NCBI GenBank assembly: GCA_013178125.1
Contig: JABLXJ010000013.1
Span: forward strand, 7,751 to 71,750
Direction of reading: 5' to 3'
Source of the DNA: Bacillota bacterium
Lineage (GTDB): Bacteria > Bacillota > SHA-98 > Ch115 > JABLXJ01
Length of the DNA stretch: 64,000 bases
Positions 4,702 to 58,970 of this stretch are shown here, in pieces. The notes below the pieces were generated by a model that worked only from the letters and a program-made list of their open reading frames with translations, had not been told where the DNA came from and did no database searches. The first letter of the stretch is position 1. Every line of letters starts with the position of its first letter. A program made the translations under genes and the position numbers.

Positions 4702-5622
4702 TAGATTCTTAATGTTGAGAGGTTCTTAGCCGGTAAAAGGCAGACTGGTAAAGCGGTGACTTCAGTGTCTTCATAGAACGCTCTCGGACTAATCGGTAAA
4801 TAATTGAGAAGCAAAGCTCTCCACCAATTCTGAGGAAAAGCGTTGATATTGTTTTGATCTCGACCCCTTTGTACATTGACAATCGAATAGCCTGCAATCC
4901 TTATGGGTTATGGAGATTTCCTGATATAGCTCGATAGTATTTGGTAAGGGAAGAATAGGCCTGGTAAGATATAATCAATAGTCATAGGCAGTAGGGGGAG
5001 AAGGGCTCATTGAAAGTAGGTGTAGTCTGTCATAAAGGTCAAATTCTCAAGGGGGGTAAGGACTCGTAATGAGGAGAGATGACGTGGGAAACTAGCTACA
5101 AAGTTCATATGCTCACCCTTTCTGTTGGTTAGTTTTCTACCAAAAGTCTTTCACCTGAGATGGTAGGATACCCATAAATTAGAAAGCCACCATAGAATGC
5201 GCTCGTGATATGCTTATCACTATCGAATGAGACCTTGGGCAACATGGTAAATACATTTATCCGATATATAGCAAGGGTCAAGGTAACCAATGGATGCCTA
5301 ATCGTGCTCATATCCAGTGATTTCGCTCATCTTAAAGCCCTTCGTCAATTCCAGTTGGCTAGCCATTTCAGGTGAAAGACTCTTGTTATTTCATGGGGTC
5401 TATATCCGAGGCGGATAATTTTAGCACCACATTTGCCACATATAACCATTTCTTTGGGGGTGAGGGAAAGGCATCCAGTCTGTAAATCTAGTAAACAAGC
5501 GAGTTCGAAATTTCTGAGAGTCTACTACTACTATAGTTAAAGGGGGTGGTTGCCGGGGTAGCGCAGTGACAAAGTAGATGCTGCTAGAACATAAACTAAA
5601 ACTAAACTGGGAGGCAAGATTT

Positions 5623-6906: not shown

Positions 6907-6991
6907 GATCAGTAAGGGTTTGAACGTCTGTCTAGTTTCGAGAGTTGCTATTGGGTAGTTTGGGCAGGCTGGTGCACGGCCTGCCCGGCTG

Positions 6992-7954
6992 TTGACTCTT
7001 ATGGATTTGAAAGAGGAGTTGGTGACGTTGAGACAGCGAACGCCCAAGGCTCCATCCCGCTATTTTCGTACTCAGTCAATGAATCAACATCAAATTGACC
7101 TGGTGCTGGGCATTCTATTGGTGATCCCACTCTTGGCCGTGATTTTCGGCGTTGTTGGTGTCCCTTTTACCAAAGCCGTTTATACTAGTTTTACCAATAA
7201 GCGAATTGGTATGGGCGAGACCTTTGTGGGGCTGCAAAACTATATCGAGATTTTTCGGGATGGTCTTTTCTGGATCGGCATCAAGAACAGTTTCATCTAT
7301 GCCTTTGATTCCGTTGTTTTGAAGTTGGTGTTTGGTTTTTGCCTGGCATTGGTCTTAAACGAAAAATTGCCCCTGCGTAATCTGTGGCGGGCGATAATCC
7401 TGATTCCCTGGGCAGTTCCCAACCTTGTGGCTACACTCACCTGGCGGTGGATGTACAGTGATACTAATGGAATAATTAATGCCCTGCTGCTAAAGGCCGG
7501 AATCATTGACTATCCCATACCATGGCTGGCTTCTACTTCCACAGCCATGTTCGCTGTAATCGTTATCAACGTATGGAAAGGCATTCCCTTTTTCACGTTC
7601 TCGCTGTTGGGAGGCCTGCAGGGAATTGACGCACAGCTTTATGAGGCAGCAGCGATTGATGGAGCCAACTGGTGGCAGCAGATTCGACACGTCGTCATTC
7701 CATCGCTTTCTGGAATTATAATTATTTCCTCCTTACTGTCGACAATCTGGACGTTTAACGACTTCCAGACAATCTATATTGCCACTGGTGGCGGGCCCGC
7801 ACATGCGACCACAATCATACCGACACTCACTTATGAGCGGGCATTCTGGAACCTTGAAATCGGTAAAGGTATTGCCATTTCAACTGCGGCTGCTCCGCTG
7901 TTCATTGGCTTGATTATGTTGGCTACCAGGTACTTCTTAAGGAGGGATGAATGA
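6992..7954 (+). CDS. ABC sugar transporter permease (MalF/UgpA-like)
   Basis: Multiple TM segments and an EAA-type loop (YEAAAIDGANWWQQIRHVVIP). The 5' start is uncertain: TTG at 6992, with an internal ATG at MNQHQ. Confidence 0.85.
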   Translation: MTLMDLKEELVTLRQRTPKAPSRYFRTQSMNQHQIDLVLGILLVIPLLAVIFGVVGVPFTKAVYTSFTNKRIGMGETFVGLQNYIEIFRDGLFWIGIKNSFIYAFDSVVLKLVFGFCLALVLNEKLPLRNLWRAIILIPWAVPNLVATLTWRWMYSDTNGIINALLLKAGIIDYPIPWLASTSTAMFAVIVINVWKGIPFFTFSLLGGLQGIDAQLYEAAAIDGANWWQQIRHVVIPSLSGIIIISSLLSTIWTFNDFQTIYIATGGGPAHATTIIPTLTYERAFWNLEIGKGIAISTAAAPLFIGLIMLATRYFLRRDE

Positions 7955-38800: not shown

Positions 38801-40725
38801 TGCTCGTGGCACGCGCCGTGGCGGGGCGCGATTCCGACGCAATGCAGGTGTCGTTGCCTGTCAGGCCGTGCGGGGTGGAGCGGAGGGAGGCGGTTGCAGG
38901 GGAAATTGCAGGGTCCCGGGGAGCCGGGGGCGCCGGGAGCGCCGCGGGAGCCCGAGCTGGAGAGGAAGCTGGCGCGGGAGGAGGCGCACCGTTAGGGTCA
39001 ACATGGAGGCCTACGGCAGGGCCGGCTCAGATCGAGTTTAAACTACCATCGGACGTGATACCGGGCACGGCAAACCTCGAGATAAGGCTCTCCCCATCCA
39101 TGGGGGGTGCGGTCTTCGGGGCCCTCGATTACCTGGCATCCTACCCTTACGGCTGCGTTGAGCAGACAATGAGCTCCTTTTTGCCAGACATCGTGGCCGC
39201 GAGAGCCCTATCAGATCTGGGTGCTAGCGATCCCGAGCTCGAGAAGAGCCTTCCCCGGATGGTGAACGATGGGCTGCAGCGGCTCTACCGGTTCCAGCAT
39301 TACGACGGCGGCTGGGGCTGGTGGGAACACGACGAGACGGATACTCGAATGACCGCTTATGTTGTTTGGGGCCTGGCCCTTGCGCGACAGGCGGGGTTCC
39401 AGGTTGACCAGAGGGTTATCGACCGGGGCAAGAAGGCCCTGTATGAGGCATTGATGAAGCCCTCCTGCCTCGATGAGCTGGTCTACACGCATTACGCTCT
39501 GACTCAGGCCGGAGCCAGGGAGCCTGAGCTCATCCGTCTTGACGAGGCCCTCGCCAGGCGGGACGAGCTGACCAACCTGTCCAGGGCTTTGCTGGCCATG
39601 ACCTTGAAGGGCCTGGGCAGGGAGGCTGACGCAGGTCGCGTTCTCGAAGACCTGAGGCGCTCGGCGCGTGAAAGCGCCACAGCGTGCTACTGGGAGTCCC
39701 GTGGGAGGGGCCTGCAGGTTGAGGATGAGAGCGATGAGGACGACCTGTGGCAGGACAATAAGGTCGAGACGACTGCCTATGTGCTCCGGGCCTTTATGGC
39801 GGTGCGACCGGAGGATGCGCTGGTGCCAAAGGCGGCAAGGTGGCTTATGAATGTTCGCCAGGGCAACCGGTGGGCATCTACGAAGGATACGGCGGCTGCC
39901 GCGCTGGCGTTGCTTGAATTCCTGAAGGTGAAGGGGAATCTCGCGCCCCGCTTCTCGGCGAGGGTCTATGTCGATGGGAGAATGGTCGGGGAGCTGACGT
40001 TCACAGGGGGCGACGTCTTCGCCGGGGAAAAGGTAGTGCGGCTCGACGGGCTCGACGTCCATCCTGGGCGACCTGTCCGGGTCGGGATAGAAAAGGCCGG
40101 GGAGGGGAAGCTTTATTACGCAGCTGCCATGGAGTTCTATGTTCCTGCGCCTCGTGGGACCGGGACCGGGACTGTGACTGGGACCGGGGACGTTGCGTCT
40201 CGTGCGACCGGCGATGAGGGGGGTATTGCCGGAGGTAGAGCTGCGGGCATTGAGGTGGTCCGGGGCTATTTCACCCGTGAGGTGCACGAGCGCCGGGACC
40301 CGGGCGGGGAGTCACGGGGAGATAAGGGGTACACTTATACGTATAAGCCGCTCAGGGGACCAGTGAGGGCCGGGGATGAGGTGTTTGTCAGGTTGCTTAT
40401 CAAGGCAGACCGTCCCTATAGGTACATGATGATCGAGGATGCGATACCCAGCGGGTTTGAGGTCGTGGACGATTATATCGACAGCTATAGCTGGGATTTC
40501 TGGTACGGGCGAAAAGAGGTCAGGGATGCAAAGGTGGCCTTCGCCAGCAGCTATCTAAGGAAGGGTGCGAACGAGATAATCTACAGCCTGCGCGCGGAGC
40601 GCCCGGGCCGGTACCGCGTGGCTCCCACGAATGTATGGTGCATGTATGATCCGGAAATCACCGCGGTGGCGGGCGCGTCCGAGATCGCCGTCGAGGAGGC
40701 GGGCGGTCATGCCCTCACGGAATGA
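35854..40725 (+). CDS. Bacterial alpha-2-macroglobulin family protein with an intact thioester motif
   Basis: About 1600 aa with repeated MG-type beta-domains. Thioester site YPYGCVEQTMSSF (Cys codon 39154-39156). Signal-like segment ALCILALIWALLCVLMPGAAPAAVWA. Start uncertain (the ORF is open from 35692). Confidence 0.85.
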   Translation: MQCCVKDRLDRCRDENEPGYSGDRARGGVRGGVRYEALCILALIWALLCVLMPGAAPAAVWAREAAPFYLYTTERVFSPQEKPYVMARGTGAGSGAGTPRGLELEFEVYRFDPFTLIEKEKTLSRVGSVTPEDARLVASFSLTPRRRDKSGDFLLKVPFSPPGPGGYLVVARDQRGRKQATWVIVTRLGLVTKQANNALVVYAQDFASGRPFAGVLVRVYDGHTAIASGYTDRNGLLYVGKAGLPRNAVVVARYGPNFAHVNSTYYWEDSRYKVYAYTDRPVYRPGQEVFFKGIAREDTGTGGDYRVLGGEKVLVDIRDAGDASVYRAELVTNEFGAFGGQFTLGREPALGTYRILTTVKGSTQYAWFKVAEYRKPEYQVTVKCPRPTYVAGDRVPVEVSASYYFGAPVAGARVRYYVYSQPYYTYFSPPEEEGYYSYLSDEGMYYGELVTQGEAKTDGGGVARFSVATRKIGRNRRFIIEARVVDESRREVMGRTSVVVARGTFEIALRPERYVLKPRERVEIKVRTEDLEGKPVAQRLETRVYRVEWQGKVMRRWEAMSVRVATGRDGRGGFTFLPREEGSYEIEIRGSDERGNVIATTELIWVTGEEYVLDSYGGPELDIVTDKVSYDRNDVARVVVNTTQKDVFALVTIEGYRLYSAEVVHLAGHSRVFEIPLRREYSPNIYFGVTLVAGKRLISREKAIYISPREKFLNVTIKPDKDTYGPGEEATYTIKATDSAGKPVRAELSFGLVDASVYAVQGEMAPDIRRFFYGARANRVVTNYSFPEWYYGGADKDAGAGETRKWFPDTAAWEPFVITDGRGNARLKVRLPDSLTTWRATVRAHTLDTSVGSGTCDIRASKEFFVRVATPRFLTQGDETVISTIVHNYTSRSIQAKVSLEVSGSGVEIGAVREAGGASAGSGGGKGKGEGEEGAATARGAAMAKGVRAGAGAGAGARVVSVAPGGAGRVDWRVKANGVGNAMLVARAVAGRDSDAMQVSLPVRPCGVERREAVAGEIAGSRGAGGAGSAAGARAGEEAGAGGGAPLGSTWRPTAGPAQIEFKLPSDVIPGTANLEIRLSPSMGGAVFGALDYLASYPYGCVEQTMSSFLPDIVAARALSDLGASDPELEKSLPRMVNDGLQRLYRFQHYDGGWGWWEHDETDTRMTAYVVWGLALARQAGFQVDQRVIDRGKKALYEALMKPSCLDELVYTHYALTQAGAREPELIRLDEALARRDELTNLSRALLAMTLKGLGREADAGRVLEDLRRSARESATACYWESRGRGLQVEDESDEDDLWQDNKVETTAYVLRAFMAVRPEDALVPKAARWLMNVRQGNRWASTKDTAAAALALLEFLKVKGNLAPRFSARVYVDGRMVGELTFTGGDVFAGEKVVRLDGLDVHPGRPVRVGIEKAGEGKLYYAAAMEFYVPAPRGTGTGTVTGTGDVASRATGDEGGIAGGRAAGIEVVRGYFTREVHERRDPGGESRGDKGYTYTYKPLRGPVRAGDEVFVRLLIKADRPYRYMMIEDAIPSGFEVVDDYIDSYSWDFWYGRKEVRDAKVAFASSYLRKGANEIIYSLRAERPGRYRVAPTNVWCMYDPEITAVAGASEIAVEEAGGHALTE

Positions 40726-40735
40726 GGAGGCCCAG

Positions 40736-41869
40736 ATGCGTGCAAAGGCGCAGGCGGATGCGAATGCGAATGCGAATGCTGATGCTAATGCTTATGCTAA
40801 TGCGGAAGGGCAGGAGTATGCGCCCACCTCGCATAGGCGGGCGCTCAGCCTGCGGGGGCGGGCTTGGGTTGCGATCGCCTGGGCTGCGGTTGCCTGTATC
40901 ATCGTCTTGATCCTCGTTGCCATCGCCCCGGCTGTTGTCCCGGTCCTTCGCGGGGTTCCAGAGGGACCTGGCGGATGGTCGGGAGGTGCCGAGGGAGAGG
41001 TCGGGGGTGAGCCCGGGAATGGGCCGGCGGAATTGGTGGGGCCAGGCGGTGGTGGGGCTGGGTGCGGCGCCAGCGGGCCTTCGAGCGGCCAGCCTGCCGA
41101 TGCTGGGCAGCCCGTTGTGGTTGCGAGCTTCTCGACCGCGCTCGAGGAGGGCGAGCTCACGCGCAACAATAACATCCGGCTCGCAGCGGAGGCCATAGAC
41201 GGGACGAGGCTCGCCCCGGGCGCCGTTTTTTCGTTTAACGCTATAGTCGGCCCCCGCATACGGGAGAAGGGGTACCAGGAGGCGAAGGTCATTGTCGAGG
41301 GTGCGGCCGCGCCTGGCATCGGAGGTGGAATCTGCCAGGTTTCTACAACGCTTTACAACGTGGCGCTCCTGGCGGGCATGGAGATTCTCGAGCGGCATCA
41401 CCACTCCAGGCCCGTCGGTTATGTGCCGCTCGGCCGGGATGCGACTGTTGCAGAAGGAAGCCTGGATCTGAAATTTCGGAATCCGACGAGGGATACCATA
41501 ATCCTCAGGGCGGGGGTGGACGGTAATCGCTTGCTCATCGAGGCTCTGGCGGAGAGGCCTTTAGGGAGGAAAGTGGAGATACTCACATCGATCGAGGAGG
41601 TCGTGGAGCCCAGGGTGCTTGATAACCCCCCTGTCTGTGGTGGCGCCCGGGATGCCGGCACGGCGTTCCCGAGCGCGATCGCAAGCGGGCGCGAAGGCTA
41701 CAAGGTCCTGACATGGCGGGTAACCCATTACCTGGACGAGGACGGGGGCGGGGACCAGGGTCAGGGTGGCCCAAAGCCGGCGACAGAGACCAGGGAGCTT
41801 ATCTCAGAGGATTACTACAGGCCCGTGGATGTTCCATACATAGTTCATGGTGCTAACAGGTATCATTAA
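40736..41869 (+). CDS. VanW-family protein, membrane-anchored
   Basis: VanW core FSFNAIVGPRIREKGYQEA...GGGICQVSTTLYNVALLAGMEILERHHHS. TM segment VAIAWAAVACIIVLILVAIAPAVV. ATG at 40736 follows a GAGGAGG RBS. Confidence 0.8.
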   Translation: MRAKAQADANANANADANAYANAEGQEYAPTSHRRALSLRGRAWVAIAWAAVACIIVLILVAIAPAVVPVLRGVPEGPGGWSGGAEGEVGGEPGNGPAELVGPGGGGAGCGASGPSSGQPADAGQPVVVASFSTALEEGELTRNNNIRLAAEAIDGTRLAPGAVFSFNAIVGPRIREKGYQEAKVIVEGAAAPGIGGGICQVSTTLYNVALLAGMEILERHHHSRPVGYVPLGRDATVAEGSLDLKFRNPTRDTIILRAGVDGNRLLIEALAERPLGRKVEILTSIEEVVEPRVLDNPPVCGGARDAGTAFPSAIASGREGYKVLTWRVTHYLDEDGGGDQGQGGPKPATETRELISEDYYRPVDVPYIVHGANRYH

Positions 41870-45322: not shown

Positions 45323-46708
45323 CTATGTTATCTCAACACGGCGCGCGGTGACTCGCTGGATCTTCACTTCTTGACCTGTAACGGCATCTATATACACTCG
45401 AAACTCCTCAGTATCCAGCCTCCCACGGAATTCATAGCATAGCTTCTCCCGGCCGAGGTCATCCAGGATCACAACTAGCCTGGCGCTTGTGATATCCAGC
45501 CTCGGGCTGACCCTTGACCTGGCTTCATCCATGGTCAGTGCAGGCATCGGCAGGGTGCGCGCGTGATGGAACGTTATATAGCCTGACCCTTCGAACCCCA
45601 GGATGGCTCCATTATCGAGGGCGATGCGGAGCTTGATCGCATCCGGGTATACGAGCACACCGTCTTGTTCAAGAACATACGTTATAACGGCAACGTTCTG
45701 GTATTGATCTCTATCGGTGGGGCGCATGTTCTTGAACCCGCGCGACTCCAGGAACGCCGCTCCGATCTCAGTAACCTTATCGAGAGACAATTTTGAGACA
45801 CTAGCGCGCCGGTCGTCTAGCATCCATATCACATGTCCGCCCTTTTCCGAGACATCAACCCTTATGCTGGCGCCTTGATCTTGATCGCCCCCCCCGCTCC
45901 TGGAATCTGCTACAGTCACCCTATATGATCGCGGGTCGGTCACGACCCGGGTGACCGTAAGCTGCTTACCCTCAGTCCGCTCTGGCCCGATAAACCCCCG
46001 GGCGATCTCGATGGCCTTGGTTTCAGTTATTAGAGGCCCGGTCAGGCCCTTGGGGACGATCTTTTCGGGGGGTATGTTGCCGGCGAAATCCGGGTCGGGG
46101 AATCTGCGCATCCCGTCTTCCAGCATCTTCAGGCTCTTAGTCGCGGGGTTTATTCGCGGTTTTCGAGTCGCCCCCGGTCGCTCGGCCCTTGTCGCCGCCA
46201 TGGCCCTCTGGATATCATTCCACCGGGCCCCTTCATTCATAAATGAAGCCTGCATTTTCCCGATCGAGGTGCTCATGAACTTGGCCTGGCGGTGAAGGTC
46301 GCGGAGCGTCGCCCATTCGCTGGCTGTGATCGGTTGACCCTGAGCGTTTTTGATGGCGAGTGAGTATGTAAATGCGCCAAGCCGCCCTATGAACTGTTCG
46401 GTTCTTGTCAGGGGGACGGTGAGGAGAGGGAGCTGGCCGATATTTGCCTGGGCGGTCGAGGCGTGACGCCATATATCTGAAAAGGTTTGCACTCGCCCCT
46501 TTGGCGAGTTAGCAACAAGAGCCTTAGCGGTCTCGGCTTCGATCCCATCCAGGTGGTAAGATAGCTCTTGAAACGCCCGCTGGTACTGGTTTTCGACCTG
46601 GATTTCAACATGCCGTCTTAATATGTACTCACGAATCCCTAAGAATGCCGTGATCACCAAGGCTATAGTAAGGATAGGTAGAGCTAATTTCCGTTGCAAG
46701 GCGTACAC
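45323..46708 (-). CDS. ypeB: Germination protein YpeB (PepSY-domain protein)
   Basis: N-terminal TM segment, YpeB-like N-domain (VENQYQRAFQELSYHLDGIE...) and C-terminal PepSY-like repeats. Directly downstream of sleB. Confidence 0.8.
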   Translation of the reverse strand: MYALQRKLALPILTIALVITAFLGIREYILRRHVEIQVENQYQRAFQELSYHLDGIEAETAKALVANSPKGRVQTFSDIWRHASTAQANIGQLPLLTVPLTRTEQFIGRLGAFTYSLAIKNAQGQPITASEWATLRDLHRQAKFMSTSIGKMQASFMNEGARWNDIQRAMAATRAERPGATRKPRINPATKSLKMLEDGMRRFPDPDFAGNIPPEKIVPKGLTGPLITETKAIEIARGFIGPERTEGKQLTVTRVVTDPRSYRVTVADSRSGGGDQDQGASIRVDVSEKGGHVIWMLDDRRASVSKLSLDKVTEIGAAFLESRGFKNMRPTDRDQYQNVAVITYVLEQDGVLVYPDAIKLRIALDNGAILGFEGSGYITFHHARTLPMPALTMDEARSRVSPRLDITSARLVVILDDLGREKLCYEFRGRLDTEEFRVYIDAVTGQEVKIQRVTARRVEIT

Positions 46709-46739
46709 CTCCTGGATAAGTTAGGGATGAGATTGAGAT

Positions 46740-47249
46740 TCATCTTGAAAAAACATGGTTGCCGATTTGCGTAATAATAGGCCTGGACCAAATCCACCAG
46801 CTTACAGGCTTTGACGGGTTAAAGTAATAGAGCGCACCTCCTGTAGGATCCCACCCGCTAAGGGCATCCTGGGTAGCCCTATAAGCATCTGTGCCTGGAT
46901 ATCTGAGCCAGATGAGCCCATTAGCTACCGACTCAAATGCATCGGGCTCGAATATGACGCCCGGTATGGTCTTGGGGAAGTTTGGGCTTTCTAATCGGTT
47001 CATGATTACCGCTCCAACGGCAACCTTGCCTATGTAGGGCTCGGCCCAGGCCTCTCCCTGTATCACTCTTGCCATCAAGTCGACGTTATACCTGTACGAA
47101 TCCCAGGGGGCCGCGATCAGGCCTTGGTCAAGGGCTTTGTCGTTGCGGCTTGAAATGGCCACCGGCATGATGGTGTTTGGGTAGAATAAAAGCGATACGC
47201 ATATTGCAAGTAACGCCATGATGACAAGCAAAGCTAAGAATCGCCTCAT
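46740..47249 (-). CDS. sleB: Spore cortex-lytic enzyme SleB/CwlJ-family cell-wall hydrolase
   Basis: Hydrolase_2 core LMARVIQGEAWAEPYIGKVAVGAVIMNRLESPNFPKTIPGVIFEPDAFESV. Paired with ypeB. Confidence 0.8.
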   Translation of the reverse strand: MRRFLALLVIMALLAICVSLLFYPNTIMPVAISSRNDKALDQGLIAAPWDSYRYNVDLMARVIQGEAWAEPYIGKVAVGAVIMNRLESPNFPKTIPGVIFEPDAFESVANGLIWLRYPGTDAYRATQDALSGWDPTGGALYYFNPSKPVSWWIWSRPIITQIGNHVFSR

Positions 47250-48623: not shown

Positions 48624-48781
48624 CTAGGCCAGCTAGAGGGCCATTTCAGAAGCAAACATCCTGCTAAAGGCCATGTTGGAAAACAATAACAGTCGGTTTT
48701 AACCCCTTGGGGCCGTGGTACCCTAAACGTATCTCCCATTGTAAAAAATGGGAGGTTTTTACTTTGGCAAGGGCAAGGGTT

Positions 48782-49702
48782 ATGCGCATTGACAGGAAGG
48801 TAATCTCGACATGGCAGGAAGCCCTATCCGACTTTATCCTTTCCAGGCAAGCCATGGGTCTATCGCCCAGGACAATCAATGACTATCAGCAACATGTCAA
48901 GCTTTTCTTCTCCCGTTACCCTGACGCTTGGAACCCCTCAAATCTCAAACGAGCAGTGATGATGCACATGTCCCATCCTGTGGCACCCGCCACTTTTAAC
49001 AACCGACGGAAGTACCTGAAGATCTTCTTCAACTGGTGTATGGAGGAAGGCATATTCCCCGAAAACCCGTTGTCCAGAGTCCCAAAGAAGAGGGACGAAG
49101 GCCGGATCAGGGACATTAAAGCGGAGGTGCTTGAGCGTCTTATGTCCCTGCCAAACAAAAAGACCTACACTGGCCTGCGTGACTACGCTTTGATCCTCTT
49201 AAGTCTCGATATCGGGATCCGCCCAAGAGAAGCGTTATCTTTACTTGTGTCTGATGTTGACCTGGAAGGTAAGACGGTTACCATCAGGCGCGAGATATCC
49301 AAGACCAGGAAGACCAGTATCCTGCCCATTACTGAGCCGGTTGTCAATGCCCTGAAAAAGCTCGTTCATGTAAGACACCCCGTGTGGGATAAAGACGCAC
49401 CACTCTTCTGCACTAGAGATGGAACACCGCTGACAGTAAGAAGGTGGGAAGCAAGGCTCAAGAAATACTCAGACATCCTGGGAACGAGCGTCACTCCTTA
49501 CGATTTGCGCCACGGTTTTGCCACCTTGTTCTTGAGAGACGGAGGAAACGTATATGCTCTCCAGAAGATTTTACGTCACTCCAGTATGGATATGGTTAGA
49601 CGGTACTTACAATTTAACGATGAAGACATAAGACGACAGCATGAGCTTGCGTCACCTGTAGTGAGGCTCTTAACCAAGACGCCGAGGGTTGGTAAGATTT
49701 AG
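48782..49702 (+). CDS. Tyrosine recombinase / phage-type integrase
   Basis: N-terminal SAM-like domain and a catalytic domain with R...HxxR...Y (LRDYALILLSLDIGIRPREA; DLRHGFATLFL; LRHSSMDMVRRYL). Start moved to the ATG at 48782. Confidence 0.85.
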   Translation: MRIDRKVISTWQEALSDFILSRQAMGLSPRTINDYQQHVKLFFSRYPDAWNPSNLKRAVMMHMSHPVAPATFNNRRKYLKIFFNWCMEEGIFPENPLSRVPKKRDEGRIRDIKAEVLERLMSLPNKKTYTGLRDYALILLSLDIGIRPREALSLLVSDVDLEGKTVTIRREISKTRKTSILPITEPVVNALKKLVHVRHPVWDKDAPLFCTRDGTPLTVRRWEARLKKYSDILGTSVTPYDLRHGFATLFLRDGGNVYALQKILRHSSMDMVRRYLQFNDEDIRRQHELASPVVRLLTKTPRVGKI

Positions 49703-49763
49703 ACTCGACCCCTCAAGGACTGGGCATGTATATAAATCCATAGGCAGCTAGAAGAAAGGGCTC

Positions 49764-50456
49764 CTAAAAACCAGGAGCCCTTCTTTCCATCATATGTTTA
49801 CATGCAATCTTGCTGTTCGCCCATATCTCAAATCCCTTTTTCTTCGCCTCCAAGCAGAAGCCCACGTCTTCCCCCTGCTCGTGGTAGCAGTACCTTACCT
49901 CCTCTAATACTTTCTTTTTGAGGAGATATACCGCTCCTGTTACATCACATTGAAACAAGGCGTTTTTCGGGAAGTCCAGATAGTGAGTTATACTGCCGTT
50001 TCTGTGGGCCATTATGTTGGGGAATACCTTTGAGGGATCGTTCCATATCTGGGCGCTCACTATGTCTTTGTCTGCGACTATGAGCTCTTTTAAGGTATAG
50101 GGAGGAACCAGGATATCTGAGTCCACACTGAAGAGGTAGTCCGCTTCCATGTCCAGGGCCTGCTCAACCAGGATGTTTCTGAGCTCGGCGAGACTTACGT
50201 ATATCTTTTTTCTGACGTTCCACGTCCTCTGATCTTCTATCTGACCAAGGTCGTGCTCCAGGATGCGGATTTGTCTATACTCATCCTTATGCTCCCTGGC
50301 AAAGGACATGAGGATCTCTTTTGTCCTGTCTGTGGAGTCGTTTATGACAAAGCACAGAGATAGGTCATCCTTTGGGAAATCCAGGTTATATATGTGGTCC
50401 AGATATTCTCCTATGATCCAATCCCTATTCCTTACCGGGCAGCCGATCACTACCAT
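49764..50456 (-). CDS. Glycosyltransferase family 2-like protein
   Basis: VVIGCPVRNRDW..., INDSTDRT, and a DxD-like SVDSD motif. The assignment is by resemblance only. Confidence 0.55.
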   Translation of the reverse strand: MVVIGCPVRNRDWIIGEYLDHIYNLDFPKDDLSLCFVINDSTDRTKEILMSFAREHKDEYRQIRILEHDLGQIEDQRTWNVRKKIYVSLAELRNILVEQALDMEADYLFSVDSDILVPPYTLKELIVADKDIVSAQIWNDPSKVFPNIMAHRNGSITHYLDFPKNALFQCDVTGAVYLLKKKVLEEVRYCYHEQGEDVGFCLEAKKKGFEIWANSKIACKHMMERRAPGF

Positions 50457-50847
50457 ATGCCCTCGTGTATACCTCCACTATTTGCTGGGCTCTTGCTGCA
50501 TAGTTGTGCTTCTCATAGACCTCCTTCTGAGCCTTTCTCGCTATTTCTTGCCTTTCTTCGCTGTCCATGTGGAGGATCATTTCCATCAGTTCTAAAGTCT
50601 CCTCTTTATTTTTTGCCTGGAATATGAGGTCGCCAAAGAGGTTCTCCTGGGCTTTGGTGTAGTGGGCGAGGAATAAACCTCCTCCGCATGCTAGGGCTTC
50701 ATACGGCCTCATGGAGGTCTGGGTCGCGGAAGTATCGTCGCAGTTCATCCCAAGGATGATTTTCGCTGAGCTATATACACAAGGAAGCTCCTCGTAAGGC
50801 AGTATGCCACCATAGATGTCCATATGTTTCGGATATGTTCCATTCAC
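50425..50847 (-). pseudogene. C-terminal fragment of a CgeB/GT1-type glycosyltransferase
   Basis: Only the C-terminal domain is present (SAKIILGMN..., RPYEALACGGGLF...). The 5' part is replaced by IS21 debris at about 50846. Confidence 0.5.
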
Positions 50848-51097
50848 GAAGACCGGAGCTGAGCTTCTCTATCAATTTTGCGCCAGCCGCTATGAGAGGG
50901 GCAGCATGATAGTCACCACAAACCTGGAGCTTAGCCAGTGGACGGAGGTGTTTGGGGATGAGAGAATGACAGCGGCACTTCTTGATCGGCTCACCCATAG
51001 GGCCCATATCCTGACTTTAAACGGGGAGAGTTATCGTTTCCGGGAGAGCATGCGTAAACAAGAGGTAGAACGTGAGATGTTGCACACGCCTGCCTAG
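50846..51097 (+). mobile_element. IS21-family IstB helper ATPase, C-terminal remnant
   Basis: ...GAELLYQFCASRYERGSMIVTTNLELSQWTEVFGDERMTAALLDRLTHRAHILTLNGESYRFRES matches the IstB C-terminus. There is no Walker A region and no istA. Confidence 0.65.
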
Positions 51098-51605: not shown

Positions 51606-53798
51606 TTATTCGCTATCGAAGATACTGCGAAATATGGCCTCGAATTCGGAAACCTCTCTACCATTGAAGACGACTTTGGGGCACAAAGCAAGTATTTGGT
51701 CCCTCATTGTGATTAACTCGCAAGCCCGCAGTGCGCGTGTGGGTTTATCGACGCCGGTAACGCCGTTAGGGTAATAATCTTCGATTGCGCCTTTGGCAAG
51801 CACATTAATCCTGAGCTCTCTCAGGCGTTCAAGTAGCTCATACTTATCATGGAGTTCTGGGTGCCCTTTACGTAGGAGATTGCGACGCCTTGTCTCAGTC
51901 TCCTCAGAAAAAAGTAACTCAATTTCATCTGCCTCGTCATTGGTGATTTGCCTACCATTAGCAATTTCCCGTGCTAGATATTTTAATCTCTGGTATCTTT
52001 CCTGCCAGGTGTACTTACGTACCATCTCTTTGATCTTTTCCCTTGTCAGAGTCCCATCGATTCCTTCATCTTTTGCAATCTTGTCGATGACCTGGAGAAA
52101 TGCTCTCCTCTGATCAGCAACGTCTTCGGTAACCTCTAGTTTATCGAAATCTTCAAGAAGTGCATCTAGGTCAAGTATAGCATGCACCTCAAGCCCGAAC
52201 TTTTCAAAGAACTCTCTATACCTCGCCACATTCCCCTTTCCGTTGATCCTTATGAGGGGGATATTGCGTGCTTCGAAATCCCACTCCTCGTTTAGGATGC
52301 GGGCAACATGGGCTAAATAGATGGCATCGGAATCTCCCTCAACTAGGACGACCTTGCGGGCAAAAAATGCTGCAGAATTGTTCTCGTAACAGATCAGCTG
52401 AAAGGCATCCTTCCGGCGAGTATCATGTAGCAGATTAATCACCATTGGATTTCCATATGGTTTTGCATCGGGTGGGTGATCTTTTGCTAATTTGATGAAT
52501 GTTCCGGTCCCTGTAGGAGAAAAAAATAGTGGTGAGTGAGTGGTGACAACGACATGGTGCTGTTCCGAAAGCCTCGTTAAGGCTTTAAAAAGAATCCGTT
52601 GTCCTGACGGATGGAGATATAGTTCCGGTTCTTCAAAGAGGAATAAGTAATGTGGTCCAGAGGATCTCCTTAGTTGTTGATCTTCGGGCATTGGGGCCCT
52701 TTGCTTCATCTGCAAATCCACATAGCTCCTCAGCAGGGCGAAGGTTACTGACCTCTTGAGACCATCGCCTTTGGTCTCTACCACATCTCTGACACCATCA
52801 TCCACCATTATCTTCGTGCTCGAGAAGACCTGCTTCAGCTCGGGCGGTGGGATGTGTAGTTGTAAATCAACTGTTGGGAAGTTTTCTCTCAGATACGTCA
52901 GTACTTGGGATTCTATTTCCCTAATGTGCGGCAGGCGATTATCGACTACGGCACCATTTTCCGTTGATGTCCTATTGAGCATCGAATTGAGTTTTTCAAA
53001 GGATGCGGCAATCTCCTGAACCTCTACTGTACCCTCTAGCATCCTTAACAGGACACCAATAAGCTTACCAAAGGTTGCGGATTCCTTTATCTTGATTTCA
53101 TCCGTAAGATCCTTGACAGCTGGGATGTATATTGGCTCTGGGAGTAGCCTTTTAATGCTATTTGATATTCCTGTCGGCAGCGGTAAGTCACCCATGGTCT
53201 TTTCGCTCTCTGGTAAAGCTGTAATTATCTCCTGTATTTTCTCCTTTGCTGCCGATTGGGAGGTGATCCCAGCAAATTGGCTTTTGAATTCAGGTAAATG
53301 GCTTTCAAGGATATCCCTGATCTCAGAACCACGCTTGCCCTTCAGGATTTTATCTATAACATCAGGATCAAATCGCTTATCCTTTGGTACCGACCCTAGA
53401 TAGTAATAGTCAGATGAAGATCCATCGACACCATAGCATCTTACGAGTGTTAGTTCCTTATTGGCGACAATGCCTTCCACTCGATCCCTATGTTCGGGGG
53501 CAATCCGCTCTAGATCATCATCGGATATATCACTAAGCGTGACCTCAAATCTAACTGGTTGTGATGGATCATAGAAATCTGAGCTATCGATTCTGGAGCC
53601 GGAGAGAAATAGGCTGAGAGCAAGCAAAACTGTTGATTTTCCTGTATTGTTCTCACCAATTATGCAGACGAATGGGGAGAGATCAATGCGACAGTCCCTT
53701 AGGGCACGGTAGTTGGAGACATGGAGTCTGCTTAGATTCACGGGATTAACGCCTCCTAATAAGACATGCCATACCATTTTATCTTGATTGGATTGCAT
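51606..53798 (-). CDS. OLD-family nuclease (ABC-type ATPase fused to a Toprim domain)
   Basis: Walker A GENNTGKST, FEEPELYLHP (Walker B/D-loop), VVVTTHSP (H-loop), and Toprim VVLVEGDSDAIYL plus a downstream acidic cluster ILDLDALLED. Confidence 0.8.
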   Translation of the reverse strand: MQSNQDKMVWHVLLGGVNPVNLSRLHVSNYRALRDCRIDLSPFVCIIGENNTGKSTVLLALSLFLSGSRIDSSDFYDPSQPVRFEVTLSDISDDDLERIAPEHRDRVEGIVANKELTLVRCYGVDGSSSDYYYLGSVPKDKRFDPDVIDKILKGKRGSEIRDILESHLPEFKSQFAGITSQSAAKEKIQEIITALPESEKTMGDLPLPTGISNSIKRLLPEPIYIPAVKDLTDEIKIKESATFGKLIGVLLRMLEGTVEVQEIAASFEKLNSMLNRTSTENGAVVDNRLPHIREIESQVLTYLRENFPTVDLQLHIPPPELKQVFSSTKIMVDDGVRDVVETKGDGLKRSVTFALLRSYVDLQMKQRAPMPEDQQLRRSSGPHYLFLFEEPELYLHPSGQRILFKALTRLSEQHHVVVTTHSPLFFSPTGTGTFIKLAKDHPPDAKPYGNPMVINLLHDTRRKDAFQLICYENNSAAFFARKVVLVEGDSDAIYLAHVARILNEEWDFEARNIPLIRINGKGNVARYREFFEKFGLEVHAILDLDALLEDFDKLEVTEDVADQRRAFLQVIDKIAKDEGIDGTLTREKIKEMVRKYTWQERYQRLKYLAREIANGRQITNDEADEIELLFSEETETRRRNLLRKGHPELHDKYELLERLRELRINVLAKGAIEDYYPNGVTGVDKPTRALRACELITMRDQILALCPKVVFNGREVSEFEAIFRSIFDSE

Positions 53799-53977
53799 AT
53801 ACTATATTTCCATAACCAACCATAGATTCCTGCTTGAGGACCAGGCTGGCCATTACAGATTTTTAGATGGCCTGCACGTTACAGACAAAGATAGTCGCAT
53901 TCCCGCGCCCTTGGTTATTCTCTTTGCGTGTATGATCTCACGAATAGGCCAACCGTAAGATTCTCATTATCACAAAC

Positions 53978-54006
53978 TTGCGAGGTAGAAGGAAATGGCA
54001 TATATG
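53978..54006 (+). promoter_or_regulatory. Candidate sigma-70-type promoter for the retron transcript
   Basis: TTGCGA (53978-53983), a 17-nt spacer, then TATATG (54001-54006), about 20 nt upstream of the left inverted repeat. The -10 element is imperfect. Confidence 0.3.
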
Positions 54007-54025
54007 TGTCGAAATATGCAGATTA

Positions 54026-54185
54026 GTGAGGGCACTAGTTTTAGGGTCATTTTGCATAGGGCGTGGCCGTGTGCCGGGCGTTAAGCCAGGCCGTTGAATT
54101 GATAGACTTGTGGCCGCGCGGAAGTCCCTCGTCTACCCTCTCGGGTAGCCAAGGTCCTTCCGCGCGGCTCTTGTAGTGCCCTCGC
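54026..54185 (+). ncRNA. Candidate retron msr-msd non-coding RNA
   Basis: Perfect 10-bp inverted repeats GAGGGCACTA (54028-54037) and TAGTGCCCTC (54174-54183) flank about 136 nt. That interval contains a perfect 12-bp stem (54113-54124 / 54157-54168) with a nested hairpin CTACCC-TCTC-GGGTAG. Lies upstream of the retron RT operon. Confidence 0.6.
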
Positions 54186-54220
54186 CCAATTTCGTTAACC
54201 TAGTGAAATGGTGGGATGAT

Positions 54221-55162
54221 ATGCCCTTTGATAGACGCCTCTACCCTGAATCCCTTCTCATACAGGTTCGGGATCGACTCAAGCGGGGCCCGACCGTGAG
54301 TCAGGCGATCCCAAAGTTTCTATTCTTATGTGGCAGGCAATTTGATGCAGGCAGTGGCGCTGATCATATCACTAACCGCGAGTGGGTCATGGAGCACCTC
54401 GACCATTACGCGTCTAAAAACATATCCAGTATCGTGGTTCTATTTGCTGAGCAGCTTTGGATTGGACTTGATATAGATTTGCTGACTTTTGAACACTTTA
54501 TGGCCGGGATAAGCGATATGGTCCTCCTGTTTGTGGAGAGCTGGGGGACGGCGGCTGAGCTCGGAGCCTTTGCTTCCATTGACAGTCTGGTTGAGAAGAT
54601 GCTTGTCTACAATGACAAGAAGTACAGGGAGTCTAACTCATTCATAAACAACGGGCCTATCAAGAAGATTCGGGATTCCAACCCGCATGGCGTGGTCTTT
54701 GGTAATCTGGACTCCATATTCGAGAGCGGGGAGCTTCACGATGCGCTTACACATTTGGATAGCATAAGGAAGACTGTCAAACCCAACACGAGTAACAGGG
54801 TCGAGTTTGTGCCATTTTGTTTAGAGCTTTTGGACCTTATTGGCTTGCTGGGACCAGTTTTGAGGAAAGATCTGATCGAAATATATAAGTCCGTCAAAGG
54901 GTTCGGTAATTTCGACCTTGTACTACCATCGAGCACGTCTTCCATCAGTGCCGCGTTTGCACTTGATTTCCTCCAGATCTCTTCCTTAGCTTGGGAGTCA
55001 TCTGGATATCTACGGCTAAATACGAAGGCAGTAAGGAAAAACTTGTGTCTGCTTGACCTAAGTGACCATGAATTCGAGTGCCTGCGTGCCAAATTTATGG
55101 CCAGGAAGATGAGGTACATAGGCAGTTCCAATCTTCCCGTCTTTGAGGAAAGATCAGCATGA
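54221..55162 (+). CDS. Retron-associated effector candidate (unknown family; possible NDT/SLOG-like N-domain plus a C-terminal helical/DNA-binding-like domain)
   Basis: ATGA stop/start overlap with the RT gene. Motif VLLFVESWGTAAELGAF. The ATG at 54221 follows GGTGGGA; the ORF track GTG start at 54176 would overlap the ncRNA arm. Function is inferred. Confidence 0.6.
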   Translation: MPFDRRLYPESLLIQVRDRLKRGPTVSQAIPKFLFLCGRQFDAGSGADHITNREWVMEHLDHYASKNISSIVVLFAEQLWIGLDIDLLTFEHFMAGISDMVLLFVESWGTAAELGAFASIDSLVEKMLVYNDKKYRESNSFINNGPIKKIRDSNPHGVVFGNLDSIFESGELHDALTHLDSIRKTVKPNTSNRVEFVPFCLELLDLIGLLGPVLRKDLIEIYKSVKGFGNFDLVLPSSTSSISAAFALDFLQISSLAWESSGYLRLNTKAVRKNLCLLDLSDHEFECLRAKFMARKMRYIGSSNLPVFEERSA

Positions 55163-56124
55163 GCTTGATTGAAAGAATCAGTCGCTCCTTGGATATAGAC
55201 GAGAATCTTATTAAGACCATCGCCCGGACCAGCAACAAATACTACCGGGTGTTCTCAATTAGTAAGAAATTTGGCGGAGTCAGGTCGATATACCATCCCT
55301 CACCAATTCTAAAGGTATTTCAATATTGGCTTGTGCAGAATCTCATTTCTCACCTGCCTGTGTCGGAACATGCAACTGCCTATGGGCTTGGATGTTCCAT
55401 TAAGAGAAATGCCCAACTCCATGCTGCGGCCAAGCATATAGTCCGCATGGATGTTAAGAACTTTTTTCCATCAATAAGATTCCAGCTCCTAGCTGATAGG
55501 ATTAATGCCTTCAGGGATACTATCCCAGGCGGAGCATCTTTAACTGAGGAAGATCTTCAACTCATCAATGGCATTTGTTTTGTGCGGGGTAGGCTAGTTA
55601 TAGGCAGTGTCTGTGCTCCAGCAATTTCAAACGCGGTTATGTACCCGTTTGACTGCGAGGTCTCCCAACAGGCTAGAGCTTTGCATCTCACTTACTCAAG
55701 ATATGCGGATGATATCGTGTTTTCGAGTAATGAATGGATTCACCCAAGTATTGTCGAGGATATCGATGGCCGACTGGGCAAATTCGGCATGAAACTAAAT
55801 CGCGAAAAGACGATTTTTATGGGCGGCTCTGATCGGAAGATGGTAACTGGCATTTTGCTCAACACTGGTAGATTATCAATAGGAAGAGCGCGTAAGGAAA
55901 GCATCAAGAAGATGCTATATCAGAAACTGCGTACCGGTGCCGGTGATAATCGGAAGATCTTGGGATATCTAAACTATCTTAGGGATATTGAGCCTGACAC
56001 GTTCAATAGGATGGTGGTTAAGTATAACTCGTTCTTCGGTAGGAATATAATGCGCGTACTAACGGAAGCGCCAGCAGATACACGCAAGGCTCAGGCCGAG
56101 GCGGCTCCAACTAAGAAACCTTAG
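55159..56124 (+). CDS. Retron-type reverse transcriptase
   Basis: YYRVFSISKKFGGVRSIYHPSPILKVFQYWL, NAQLH (retron NAxxH), MDVKNFFPSI, YSRYADDIVFS (YADD), KLNREKT, and RKMVTGILLN (retron VTG motif). About 320 aa with no maturase or endonuclease domains. Confidence 0.9.
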   Translation: MSLIERISRSLDIDENLIKTIARTSNKYYRVFSISKKFGGVRSIYHPSPILKVFQYWLVQNLISHLPVSEHATAYGLGCSIKRNAQLHAAAKHIVRMDVKNFFPSIRFQLLADRINAFRDTIPGGASLTEEDLQLINGICFVRGRLVIGSVCAPAISNAVMYPFDCEVSQQARALHLTYSRYADDIVFSSNEWIHPSIVEDIDGRLGKFGMKLNREKTIFMGGSDRKMVTGILLNTGRLSIGRARKESIKKMLYQKLRTGAGDNRKILGYLNYLRDIEPDTFNRMVVKYNSFFGRNIMRVLTEAPADTRKAQAEAAPTKKP

Positions 56125-56433
56125 ACTAGTATGCAGTATTGGCAATAGCCCTAAAATGTTTATATACCGATTAGTGACAATTGATAGCCAAAACGATGAG
56201 ATCTTCTCGCCGGGCGCGAGATAGATTTTGTGTCTAGGCAGCCTTGCTCATTCAGGATCATTTGGCTCATTTAGATCAGAGTCTATAACGCCACGATGTC
56301 ACTAGCCGGGGGATTGCTCGATGGCCCCAGTCCATTCCTTGTTGCGGATTGATGATATTTTGTAGCATATTCACTGGCAGCTGAAGCGAAAAGCCTGAGA
56401 CGATTTCCTAGTTATCAATGCAATGCCGCCGGA

Positions 56434-56715
56434 ATGCTTATTGTTCCGCTAGCCGCCGCTGCCCATAATGCCGGATCAAAACGCATGGTGCTCACATCCT
56501 CTTTGGCCGTGTATGGGGATGTGGGGGGCCGCCGCTTAGCGAATCGGCATTTCCATCACCAGTTTCACCTTACGCATTTCTGGGCTTATATCAATAAGGC
56601 CGGGCGGATGCTTGGTTATGAGCCGAGGTTTAGCCTTGAGCAAGGCATCCTGGAGAAAGCGGAATGGCTTAGCTGTTTGGCGAAGTGCCGGGAGGAAGTG
56701 GCGGCGGGTTTGTGA
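56434..56715 (+). pseudogene. Degraded fragment of an NAD-dependent epimerase/dehydratase gene
   Basis: ...GSKRMVLTSSLAVYGD... and ...LGYEPRFSLEQGI... are separated by non-homologous sequence. There is no N-terminal Rossmann part. Confidence 0.45.
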
Positions 56716-57385: not shown

Positions 57386-57682
57386 ATGCCAAAGACGAAG
57401 CCACCATATCCACCACAGTTTAGAGCCGAGGCAGTACGCCTGGTACGCGAGAGAGGGAAACCCATGGCGCAGATCGCCGGCGACCTAGGGGTGTCAGTAA
57501 AATCGCTGCGCAAATGGACCAGACAGGCTCAGATTGATGCTGGAGAGCGTGAAGGGCTAACGACTGCCGAGCGGGAAGAGCTCAGCCGTCTCAGGCGAGA
57601 GAACCGGATTCTACGCGAGGAGCGTGAAATCCTAAAAAAAGCCGCGGCCTTCTTTGCCAAGGAGACCGGCCGGAACCGGTAG
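57386..57682 (+). CDS. IS3-family transposase OrfA (HTH)
   Basis: MPKTKPPYPPQFRAEAVRLV..., a leucine-zipper-like C-terminus, and the frameshift heptamer inside the ILKKAAAFF region. Confidence 0.85.
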   Translation: MPKTKPPYPPQFRAEAVRLVRERGKPMAQIAGDLGVSVKSLRKWTRQAQIDAGEREGLTTAEREELSRLRRENRILREEREILKKAAAFFAKETGRNR

Positions 57683-58527
57683 CGGCGTTCCGGTTCGTCG
57701 AGCGTGAGAAGGCCTGTCACAATGTGACCATACTATGCTGGGTACTGGGCGTCTCCACCAGCGGCTACTATGCGTGGCGTAAAAGAGGCCCGTCGGGTCG
57801 TGCACGGCAAGACGCTGAGCTTATAGAACACATCATACGGATTCACGAGGATAGCCGGGGCACTTACGGGGCCCCGGGGATCCATGCGGAGCTTACCATG
57901 GGGATGGGGATCCACTGCTCGAGAAAACGGGTGGCACGCCTGATGCGTGAGGCAGGTCTCATAGGCGTCGTCGGCTTCGGGGTATGACACGCCGCAATCC
58001 GGCTCAGGAACCTGCGCCGGACTTGGTAGAGCGGCAATTTACACCGGAGGCTCCCAACCGTCTGTGGGTGGCTGATATGACAGAACACGCTACGTGTGAG
58101 GGCAAGCTGTACCTGGCAGTCGTAACCGAGGCATTTTCGCGGATGGTCGTAGGTTGGTCAATGGGAGACCGCCCGGTCGCGGATCTGGCGGTCGATGCGG
58201 TGAATATGGCCGTCTGGAACCGTAGACCCGAGCCTGGGGTAATTCACCACTCAGATCACGGGCACAGTATACTGCCATAGCATTCGGTCGCACTCTCAAA
58301 GAGGCGGGTATCCTCGGCTCGATGGGTACGGTTGGTGACGCCTTAGATAACGCGGTGGCTGAGAGCTTCTTTGCCACACTCGAAACAGAACTACTCGACC
58401 GATACAACTGGTCCAGTCGCCAGGCGCTAGCCTCGGCCATCTTCGAATACATCGAGGGCTTCTATAACCGCAGGCGCCGTCACTCGACGCTCGGATACTT
58501 AGTTTCCATTGAAAAATGGACCTCACA
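57640..58527 (+). pseudogene. IS3-family transposase OrfB, broken by at least two extra frameshifts
   Basis: The -1 frame after A7G reads ...FRFVEREKACHNVTILCWVLGVSTSGYYAW. The integrase core is split over three frames (57724-57987, 57984-58280, 58322-58527). Confidence 0.75.
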
Positions 58528-58610
58528 AATATGCATGGCGACAGGCATTTACTCTCCCACAAATGCCCCATTTGATGGTATGATAGAGCTATGCAGAGAA
58601 GGGGAGAGTA

Positions 58611-58970
58611 ATGCTGAGATCTGAGAATAAAATCGCCTATCAACTGAGCCTGGTGGACCAATGGCTGCCTAAATCATACTTCTCTCTCCCGGAAGAACTC
58701 CGAAAGGTGGATGAGCTACTCTCTGATGAGAGGTTCATTGAGCCTTTAAAAAAGCACTTCTCCACCACCTGCGGTAGGCCCGGTACCCCCGTAGTTGTAT
58801 ACCTTCGCATGATGTATCTTATGAACAGCTTTGAAAGGAAGTTGCCGATAGCATCACCTGGCGCAGGTTTTGCCATATCCAGCTCGAAGATGATGTACCC
58901 GACTCCACCCTGGCCAAACTCACTAAAAAGTTCTTACCGCGCAAACCTCAGGGATGAGTCTGTCAGTTAA
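58611..58970 (+). pseudogene. N-terminal fragment of an IS5/IS1182-type transposase (DUF772-like)
   Basis: ...LPEELRKVDELLSDERFIEPLKKHFSTTCGRPGTPVVVYLRMMYL... then loss of frame. A shifted frame continues ...DDVPDSTLAKLTKKF.... Confidence 0.5.

Follow-up and report, generated by a model that had tools for sequence, protein, structure and literature searches.

Organization of the locus

We analyzed a 64,000-nucleotide stretch of DNA from a member of the Bacillota (contig JABLXJ010000013.1 of assembly GCA_013178125.1, positions 7,751 to 71,750; hereafter, the window), which includes a locus that a sequence-only reading had described as a complete retron. The locus has three parts in a row on the forward strand: a structured noncoding RNA (ncRNA) with the msr and msd segments of a retron, a gene for an effector with a domain resembling nucleoside deoxyribosyltransferases (NDT), and a gene for a reverse transcriptase (RT) (Table 1). 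We are confident that these parts form a single operon and that they make up an intact type II-A retron, of the same kind as St85 or Sen2. The analyses that follow establish the three parts and the families to which they belong, together with the conservation of the RNA structure, the gene order, and the catalytic residues.

For comparison, we scanned two collections of contigs with patterns from the effector alignment and confirmed the hits with tblastn. This gave 96 relatives in contigs from one genome per species and 225 in metagenome contigs. We compared the best 80 of the 96 and the best 80 of the 225, with 164 loci in total (numbered with the prefix L). Neither the genome contigs nor the metagenome contigs contained a near-identical copy of the retron. 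Relatives were also present in records for temperate phages of Klebsiella and Pseudomonas and in plasmids, including a plasmid of Bacillus mycoides; the plasmid records label them "retron St85 family effector protein."

Both genes were found in 152 of the 164 related loci, and in all 152, the effector gene is upstream of the RT gene on the same strand, mostly overlapping it or within tens of bases. In the window, the stop codon of the effector gene and the ATG of the RT gene overlap in the sequence ATGA (55159-55162), and the RT gene is translationally coupled to the effector gene through this overlap. In the program-made list of open reading frames (ORFs), the upstream ORF begins with GTG and is longer (54176-55162, 328 amino acids). 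We place the start at the ATG at 54221, giving a protein of 313 amino acids, because homologous proteins start at the matching residue (MFDRRLYPESLL in L002, MPFDRRLYPESLL in the window), because a Shine-Dalgarno sequence (GGTGGG) lies 5 nt before this ATG, and because the GTG would fall within the a2 repeat of the ncRNA.

Most of what the sequence-only reading had said about the layout holds. The RT ORF, with its ATGA overlap, is present as claimed, and the upstream ORF, which had been put at about 310 amino acids, is close to that length. The structured element of about 160 nt with retron-like inverted repeats corresponds to the ncRNA, and it recurs, with covariation, 5' of homologous effector genes. 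The proposed order of ncRNA, effector, and RT, as in St85/Sen2 (type II-A1) and not as in Ec86, can be read directly from the window, and the 152 related loci agree on the order of the two genes. The earlier start of the locus, at 53978, includes about 48 nt of additional sequence 5' of the RNA, with a possible promoter.

Table 1. Features of the retron locus and of its surroundings (positions are those of the window; aa, amino acids)
Feature	Position	Strand	Basis or remark
Candidate sigma-A promoter of the retron operon (TTGCGA, 17-nt spacer, TATATG)	53978-54006	+	Read by eye; weak
Retron ncRNA (msr-msd), 160 nt	54026-54185	+	Fold, covariance model, covariation
a1 arm of the terminal inverted repeat (GAGGGCACTA)	54028-54037	+	Inverted repeat, 10/10 complementary to a2
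msr hairpin 1, variable	54045-54069	+	Consensus helices 2 and 3
msr hairpin 2 (GCCGGGCGUUAAGCCAGGC)	54073-54091	+	Most conserved part of the RNA
msd hairpin, template of the msDNA stem-loop	54113-54168	+	Inverted repeat with 26-nt arms; consensus 54115-54166
a2 arm of the terminal inverted repeat (TAGTGCCCTC)	54174-54183	+	Inverted repeat and covariation
Effector, 313 aa	54221-55162	+	NCBIfam, PADLOC, PDB match, AlphaFold/Foldseek
Retron RT, 321 aa	55159-56124	+	NCBIfam, PADLOC, PDB matches, motifs
Terminator-like hairpin and T-run, 80 nt past the RT stop codon	56205-56231	+	Consensus match only; such matches are no commoner in the region than in shuffles
OLD-family nuclease, 730 aa	51606-53798	-	AAA_15 ATPase and OLD-like TOPRIM domains
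Tyrosine recombinase	48707-49702		
Glycosyltransferase fragment	Between the tyrosine recombinase and the IstB fragment		
IstB (IS21) C-terminal fragment, 93 aa	50816-51097		
ORF, 153 aa	56758-57219	+	After the RT terminator, before the IS3 remnant
IS3-family transposase, four reading frames	57386-57682, 57724-57987, 57984-58280, 58322-58624		
Short transposase-like fragment	58611-58970		Weak ISNCY-transposase match
sleB-ypeB-type pair	45323-47249	-	ypeB, 45323-46708; SleB-type Hydrolase_2 spore-cortex-lytic enzyme, 46740-47249
Alpha-2-macroglobulin-like protein, 1677 aa	35692-40725	+	MG2, A2M, bait-region, TED, and bMG10 domains
VanW-like protein	40631-41869	+	

The noncoding RNA

Because Rfam gave no match to the RNA, we built our own covariance model. 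In L001 and L002, which are the two closest loci, the upstream regions align with the window, with compensatory changes in 17 of the 43 predicted pairs, and the model (R1) was built from these three sequences. R1 scores 167.8 bits on the ncRNA of the window. Beyond the window, R1 matches over its full length in some 40 additional loci, which come from Clostridia, Acidobacteriota, Alpha-, Beta-, and Gammaproteobacteria, and other groups. Nearly all of the matches lie directly 5' of the effector gene: typically, they are at positions 4750-4940 of a locus in which the effector match starts at 5001.

The structure is stable as well as conserved. The predicted folding energy of the ncRNA is -86.2 kcal/mol, which no shuffled sequence out of 200 matched (z = -5.1). 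Its ends form a perfect terminal inverted repeat of 10 nt (a1 and a2). In a 25-row alignment that was fitted to the model, 95.0% of the cells are in standard pairs, versus 36-44% if the 3' partners are slid by one to three columns. Changes on both sides of the pair (covariation) are seen for 42 of the 43 pairs, that is, for all 10 pairs between a1 and a2, all 7 in msr hairpin 1, 5 of 6 in msr hairpin 2, and all 20 in the msd hairpin; none of the shuffles attained the observed covariation score.

The layout of the RNA is the classical one, with a1, a guanosine, a variable msr hairpin, a conserved msr hairpin, a linker, the msd hairpin, and a2. The guanosine directly 3' of a1 (G54038) is a candidate for the branching guanosine, and a G occupies the corresponding column in 17 of the 23 homologous RNAs. 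The second msr hairpin holds five of the six columns for which conservation reaches 85% or more among the full-length aligned sequences. It is likely the stem-loop that the RT recognizes, by analogy with SL2 of Eco1 and Eco7; a contact between SL2 and the thumb of the RT has been described (PMC12673091).

The homologous RNAs also bear an indirect signature of reverse transcription. Copying a G-U pair of the RNA into cDNA yields a C-A mismatch, so if the cDNA has to form the same hairpin, G-U pairs should be scarce in whatever part is copied. Across the 23 homologous RNAs, G-U pairs make up just 0.4% of the cells in the msd hairpin (2 of 448), versus 8.3% in the helices that exist only as RNA (41 of 493; Fisher p = 4e-10, computed from cells that are not independent). 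In msr hairpin 1, the proportion is 17%. This is the pattern expected if the msd segment is reverse transcribed.

The reverse transcriptase

The RT scores 265.5 bits against the NCBIfam model NF038233 ("retron St85 family RNA-directed DNA polymerase"), which has a curated cutoff of 235. Among 80 PADLOC models, its top match is RT_II-A (1.1e-78, 262.8 bits), followed by RT_I-A and then RT_III-A at about 202 bits. The top 24 of the 25 PADLOC models shown for this protein are retron RT types, and the 25th is RT_other, which carries no type label. Similarly, every match in the PDB with E < 1e-10 is a retron RT. The scores are 108-110 bits for the type I-A RTs Ec78 and Ec83 and 92 bits (4.5e-25) for Ec86. 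The alignment to Ec86 begins only at residue 26 of Ec86, so the RT of the window lacks the N-terminal helix or extension of Ec86. The closest RT among 120 listed database homologues is 58% identical and is named [quoted passage not shown] at NCBI.

The catalytic motifs YADD and DxxxFF are intact. All four motifs that the sequence-only reading had picked out are present (NAQLH at residue 84, FFPSI at 102, YADD at 182, and VTG at 229). A Pfam scan of the protein found just RVT_1 (residues 34-222) and no maturase or endonuclease domain, again as had been claimed.

At its C terminus, the RT has a low-complexity tail rich in Ala, Lys, and Pro (EAPADTRKAQAEAAPTKKP; approximately residues 303-321, or 56085-56124 in the window). 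The family profiles end near residues 290-297 and leave this tail uncovered.

The effector

The effector scores 136.6 bits against NCBIfam NF038232 ("retron St85 family effector protein," cutoff 100), with the match covering residues 31-227. It also matches PADLOC's NDT_II-A models (8.6e-39 and 7.3e-30), the second of which spans nearly the whole protein; the match to PDLC02930 covers residues 49-312 of the 328-residue ORF that begins with GTG, or residues 34-297 counted from the ATG at 54221. Precomputed annotations assign Pfam PF28093 (STM3845) to the effector and to its homologues; our local copy of Pfam gave no match to the effector, and this family was seen only in the precomputed annotations. 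STM3845 is the Salmonella gene that was later renamed rcaT. Among proteins of solved structure, the effector of Ec86 (7v9x_C) matches the N-terminal domain (residues 31-154, 7e-12). Together, these similarities indicate that RcaT/STM3845 and the effector of Ec86 are homologous to the effector of the window.

In this alignment, the effector's motif ESWGTAAELGAF, which contains E113, is matched to ESPGSFTELGAF of Ec86, and E113 lies opposite E106 of Eco1, the residue that was changed in the inactive-effector structure 8qbl (E106A). Across 41 effector homologues, E113 is invariant, as are R53, E77, E91, E106, S107, G115, F117, S140, G145, and P146. Judging from these alignments, the effector carries an N-terminal NDT-like domain with a conserved catalytic glutamate.

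With AlphaFold, using the alignment of homologues, we also obtained a confident model of the effector (mean pLDDT, 88.6; pTM, 0.84). The model has helix-strand elements from residue 196 to residue 300. When it was compared to the PDB with Foldseek, the only matches with E < 0.001 were structures of the Ec86/Eco1 effector (7xjg_J, 8qbl_E, and 8qbk_E), each with a probability of 1.00. The alignment spans about 320 columns, which take in both domains. The modeled C-terminal part is a domain of the winged-helix type, which is predicted to bind DNA. Overall, the effector, although divergent, clearly belongs to the described family of type II-A retron effectors with an NDT-like and a winged-helix domain.

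The sequence-only reading had treated the effector as a protein of unknown family that was not obviously a described one, and this part of it does not stand: the protein passes the St85-family effector model, matches the NDT_II-A models, carries PF28093, and resembles the Ec86/Eco1 effector in both sequence and fold. The searches with profiles (hidden Markov models) and structures that were suggested there for both proteins thus lead to a retron RT and to a known family of retron effectors.

Expected mechanism

What we can say about the synthesis of multicopy single-stranded DNA (msDNA), toxin-antitoxin behavior, the substrate, and the trigger is drawn from homology with better-known relatives. 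The transcript of the operon would fold by pairing of the a1 and a2 repeats, and the RT would bind the conserved msr hairpin. The RT would then prime from the 2'-OH of the guanosine beside a1 (the candidate being G54038) and copy the msd hairpin. The product, msDNA that is still joined to the msr RNA, is predicted to be approximately the complement of 54100-54173 and about 60-80 nt long, with ends that we infer from the RNA.

The complex of RT and msDNA would bind the effector and hold it inactive, and so would act as the antitoxin; the C-terminal winged-helix domain of the effector is expected to contact the stem-loop of the msDNA. If a phage protein modified, degraded, or sequestered the msDNA, then the effector would be released or activated. 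Its N-glycosidase domain, with E113 as the putative catalytic residue, might then hydrolyze NAD(P)+ or adenine nucleotides, which would stop the growth of the infected cell (abortive infection).

Several of these steps have precedents. In Sen2, RcaT is the toxin, the RT binds RcaT, and the msDNA enables the antitoxin activity; perturbing the synthesis of msDNA activates the toxin, and the phage functions that act as triggers include RecE and the methylation of the msDNA by Dam (Bobonis et al. preprints). The trigger for Ec86 is a phage Dcm methylase that acts on the stem-loop of the msDNA, and its effector depletes adenine derivatives. The N-glycosidase effector of Eco1 hydrolyzes NAD(P)+ within filaments of RT, msDNA, and effector, and the N-terminal helix of RT-Eco1, which makes the contacts between dimers, is needed for dimer and filament formation (PMC12673091). 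Because the RT motifs, both kinds of hairpin (msr and msd), the catalytic glutamate, and the C-terminal domain are all present in the window, we expect the same kind of behavior: by analogy, the locus is likely a tripartite toxin-antitoxin system that acts by abortive infection.

Genomic surroundings

The gene next to the retron RNA encodes an OLD-family nuclease. It is 227 bp from the RNA and in the divergent orientation, and there is no gene for a helicase partner adjoining it. On the other side of the retron, the ORF of 153 amino acids had no match in Pfam, NCBIfam, or PADLOC, and we do not count it as part of the system.

The OLD gene and the retron are flanked on both sides by the debris of mobile elements (48707-51097 and 57386-58970). 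The GC content dips mildly over 49-56 kb, to about 0.44-0.49, versus 0.52-0.58 on either side, with no sharp border of an island. The window contains no tRNA gene that might mark an integration site, and we did not find a clear att repeat in it.

In L002, the retron lies between two fragments of IstB from IS21 elements (3381-3857 and 6655-7311) and beside a Hachiman system (HamA and a DEAD/ResIII helicase); L003, L004, and L085 can be listed with it. Given that an IstB fragment is also near the retron of the window, this hints that this branch of retrons moves with IS21-type elements.

As for the host, the sleB-ypeB pair points to an endospore-forming bacterium, and a protein from a metagenome-assembled genome (MAG) named "Firmicutes/Bacillota bacterium" shares a cluster (90% identity or more) with the L-lactate dehydrogenase of the window. 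Both agree with the endospore-forming Firmicute that the sequence-only reading had proposed. Unrelated to the retron, the window also encodes an alpha-2-macroglobulin-like protein that is followed by a VanW-like protein; this cargo looks unusual for a Firmicute.

Weighing the alternatives

Several points weigh against the view that the locus is an intact type II-A retron that works as outlined above. The DNA appears to come from a MAG, and expression in the host is only presumed. The locus and its close relatives are known from sequence alone, and the nearest RT is 58% identical, while the nearest effectors are about 47-52% identical. We did not find a convincing promoter upstream of the retron: a consensus scan upstream of the RNA found no sigma-70-type site, and the candidate that was read by eye has a -10 hexamer without the final T (TATATG) and is not conserved in L002. 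An Rfam scan of 53700-56500, with E values of up to 10, returned no retron msr and no credible family. Also, fitting the RNA alignment to the model inflates the pairing somewhat; despite this, with an effect of this size and with the results from sliding the partners, there is little doubt that the structure is conserved. Finally, the effector is just 20% or so identical to the Eco1 effector, with a global TM score of about 0.5, so its substrate and assembly could differ from those of Eco1, and because the helix by which RT-Eco1 makes contacts between dimers is absent from this RT, the formation of filaments may not apply.

Because of this low identity and because the dimerization helix of Eco1 is absent, it is conceivable that the Bacillota/Clostridia branch is a functionally distinct subtype of II-A, which forms no filaments, acts on another nucleotide substrate, or responds to a trigger specific to phages of Gram-positive bacteria. 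Alternatively, the OLD protein might cooperate with the retron. We consider such readings unlikely, and cooperation with OLD is argued against by the same evidence that bears on a closer link, in which the retron and the OLD nuclease would be one system with two effectors, as in type I-B retrons or in Retron-Eco8, with its OLD-nuclease effector. The two are head to head, and nucleases of the OLD family are known as retron effectors (PMC13402713). The OLD protein even has weak matches to PADLOC's ATPase-Toprim_I-B (2.5e-17, 61 bits) and to NCBIfam's retron_eff_Eco8 (46.5 bits). However, the cutoff for retron_eff_Eco8 is 250 bits, and the protein's top PADLOC model is the stand-alone Old (8.9e-96, 320 bits). 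Furthermore, no OLD homologue lies in the flanks of any of the 164 related loci (the neighbor in L002 is Hachiman), and the retron already has its own cognate effector. Given the low family scores and the lack of OLD homologues near related retrons, we rejected OLD as a component of a retron of the type I-B or Eco8 kind, and we view a joint system as very improbable. The OLD gene is probably an independent, single-gene defense system, so that the region would be a small defense island.

The remnants of insertion sequences on either side (the IstB fragment and the IS3 transposase in four frames) and the lack of a clear promoter could also mean that the retron sits on a degraded mobile island and is itself decaying or silent, having lost both the production of msDNA and its role in defense. 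This seems quite unlikely: each ORF has its full length and is collinear with its homologues, every catalytic and invariant residue is retained, and the translational coupling and all of the RNA helices are intact. As for the RT itself, RVT_1 is a generic domain that is shared with the RTs of group II introns, diversity-generating retroelements (DGR), and abortive infection (Abi) and "unknown group" or defense-associated (UG/DRT) systems. The RT could therefore be one of these, in which case the hairpins upstream would be coincidental. We see next to no chance of this, and the curated cutoffs already refute it. A group II intron RT was rejected because TIGR04416 scores 39.2 bits versus a cutoff of 300 and because Pfam finds just RVT_1; nor did Rfam match a group II intron RNA within 53700-56500. 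The DRT/UG and Abi readings were rejected on scores of 39.7 bits for Drt3a (cutoff 200), 32.1 for Drt2 (cutoff 390), and 15.9 for Drt4 (cutoff 450), and the DGR reading was also rejected on curated cutoffs. The top PADLOC models are retron types, the protein lacks maturase and endonuclease domains, and the RNA structure covaries and is syntenic. Thus, by curated cutoffs, PADLOC, and the PDB, the RT belongs with the retron RTs, where the sequence-only reading had put it, and not with those of group II introns, DGRs, or Abi/UG systems.

Implications

The retron of the window, which we take to be of type II-A, belongs to a family that has been described (St85), and standard annotation pipelines would name both of its proteins correctly, because both pass the St85-family models from NCBI and the type II-A models from PADLOC. 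To our knowledge, no type II-A retron from a spore-forming member of the Bacillota has been characterized experimentally, and a literature search for type II-A retrons in Firmicutes returned nothing specific. A compact and apparently intact retron from this phylum could be a test case for the production of msDNA, for phage triggers, and for retron-based editing in Gram-positive bacteria.

Two results may be of use beyond this locus. The comparative alignment yields a usable covariance model for the ncRNAs of this branch, which Rfam does not detect. Also, the near absence of G-U pairs from the msd hairpin offers a simple way to recognize computationally which part is reverse transcribed, and this marker may be general for retron ncRNAs.

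Comparison with known retrons

In the classification of Mestre et al. (2020), type II-A1 retrons have an effector with an NDT domain and a C-terminal DNA-binding domain, with St85 as the example (PMC7736814). The order of ncRNA, effector, and RT, the similarity of the RT to those of type I-A, and the absence of the Ec86 N-terminal helix point to this subtype (II-A1, St85/Sen2-like) rather than to II-A3 (Ec86-like). Similarly, the RT fits clade 1, which is shared with type I-A, rather than clade 9, as judged from similarity scores.

The characterized retron that it most calls for comparison with is Retron-Sen2 (St85) of Salmonella Typhimurium, which is arranged as msrmsd, rcaT (STM3845), and rrtT. 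The order of the parts is the same, and the RT and the effector both pass the St85-family models of NCBIfam, which is how the two systems were compared. Like RcaT, the effector has an NDT-like N-terminal domain and a C-terminal domain of a DNA-binding type, and a similar tripartite toxin-antitoxin behavior is expected. The hosts differ, being a Bacillota MAG here and an enterobacterium for Sen2, and the sequences are distant.

Retron-Eco1 (Ec86, type II-A3) is known from structures (7v9x, 7xjg, 8qbk, 8qbl, and 8qbm). The two-domain fold of its effector is shared, the RTs are homologous, and the effector of the window keeps the ES.G...ELGAF motif of the Eco1 effector, including the glutamate that aligns to E106. 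The N-terminal helix through which RT-Eco1 dimerizes is absent from the RT of the window. The gene order differs as well: the effector gene of Ec86 lies 3' of the RT gene.

The most similar systems are the uncharacterized St85-family retrons from MAGs of Bacillota and Clostridia and from human gut metagenomes (L002-L023 and L086-L164), along with the one on the Bacillus mycoides plasmid, with which the window's retron shares both the layout of ncRNA, effector, and RT and the architecture of the RNA. The closest of these is L002, whose RT is 58% identical and whose effector is 51-52% identical; the two loci differ in their neighbor, which is OLD in the window and Hachiman in L002.

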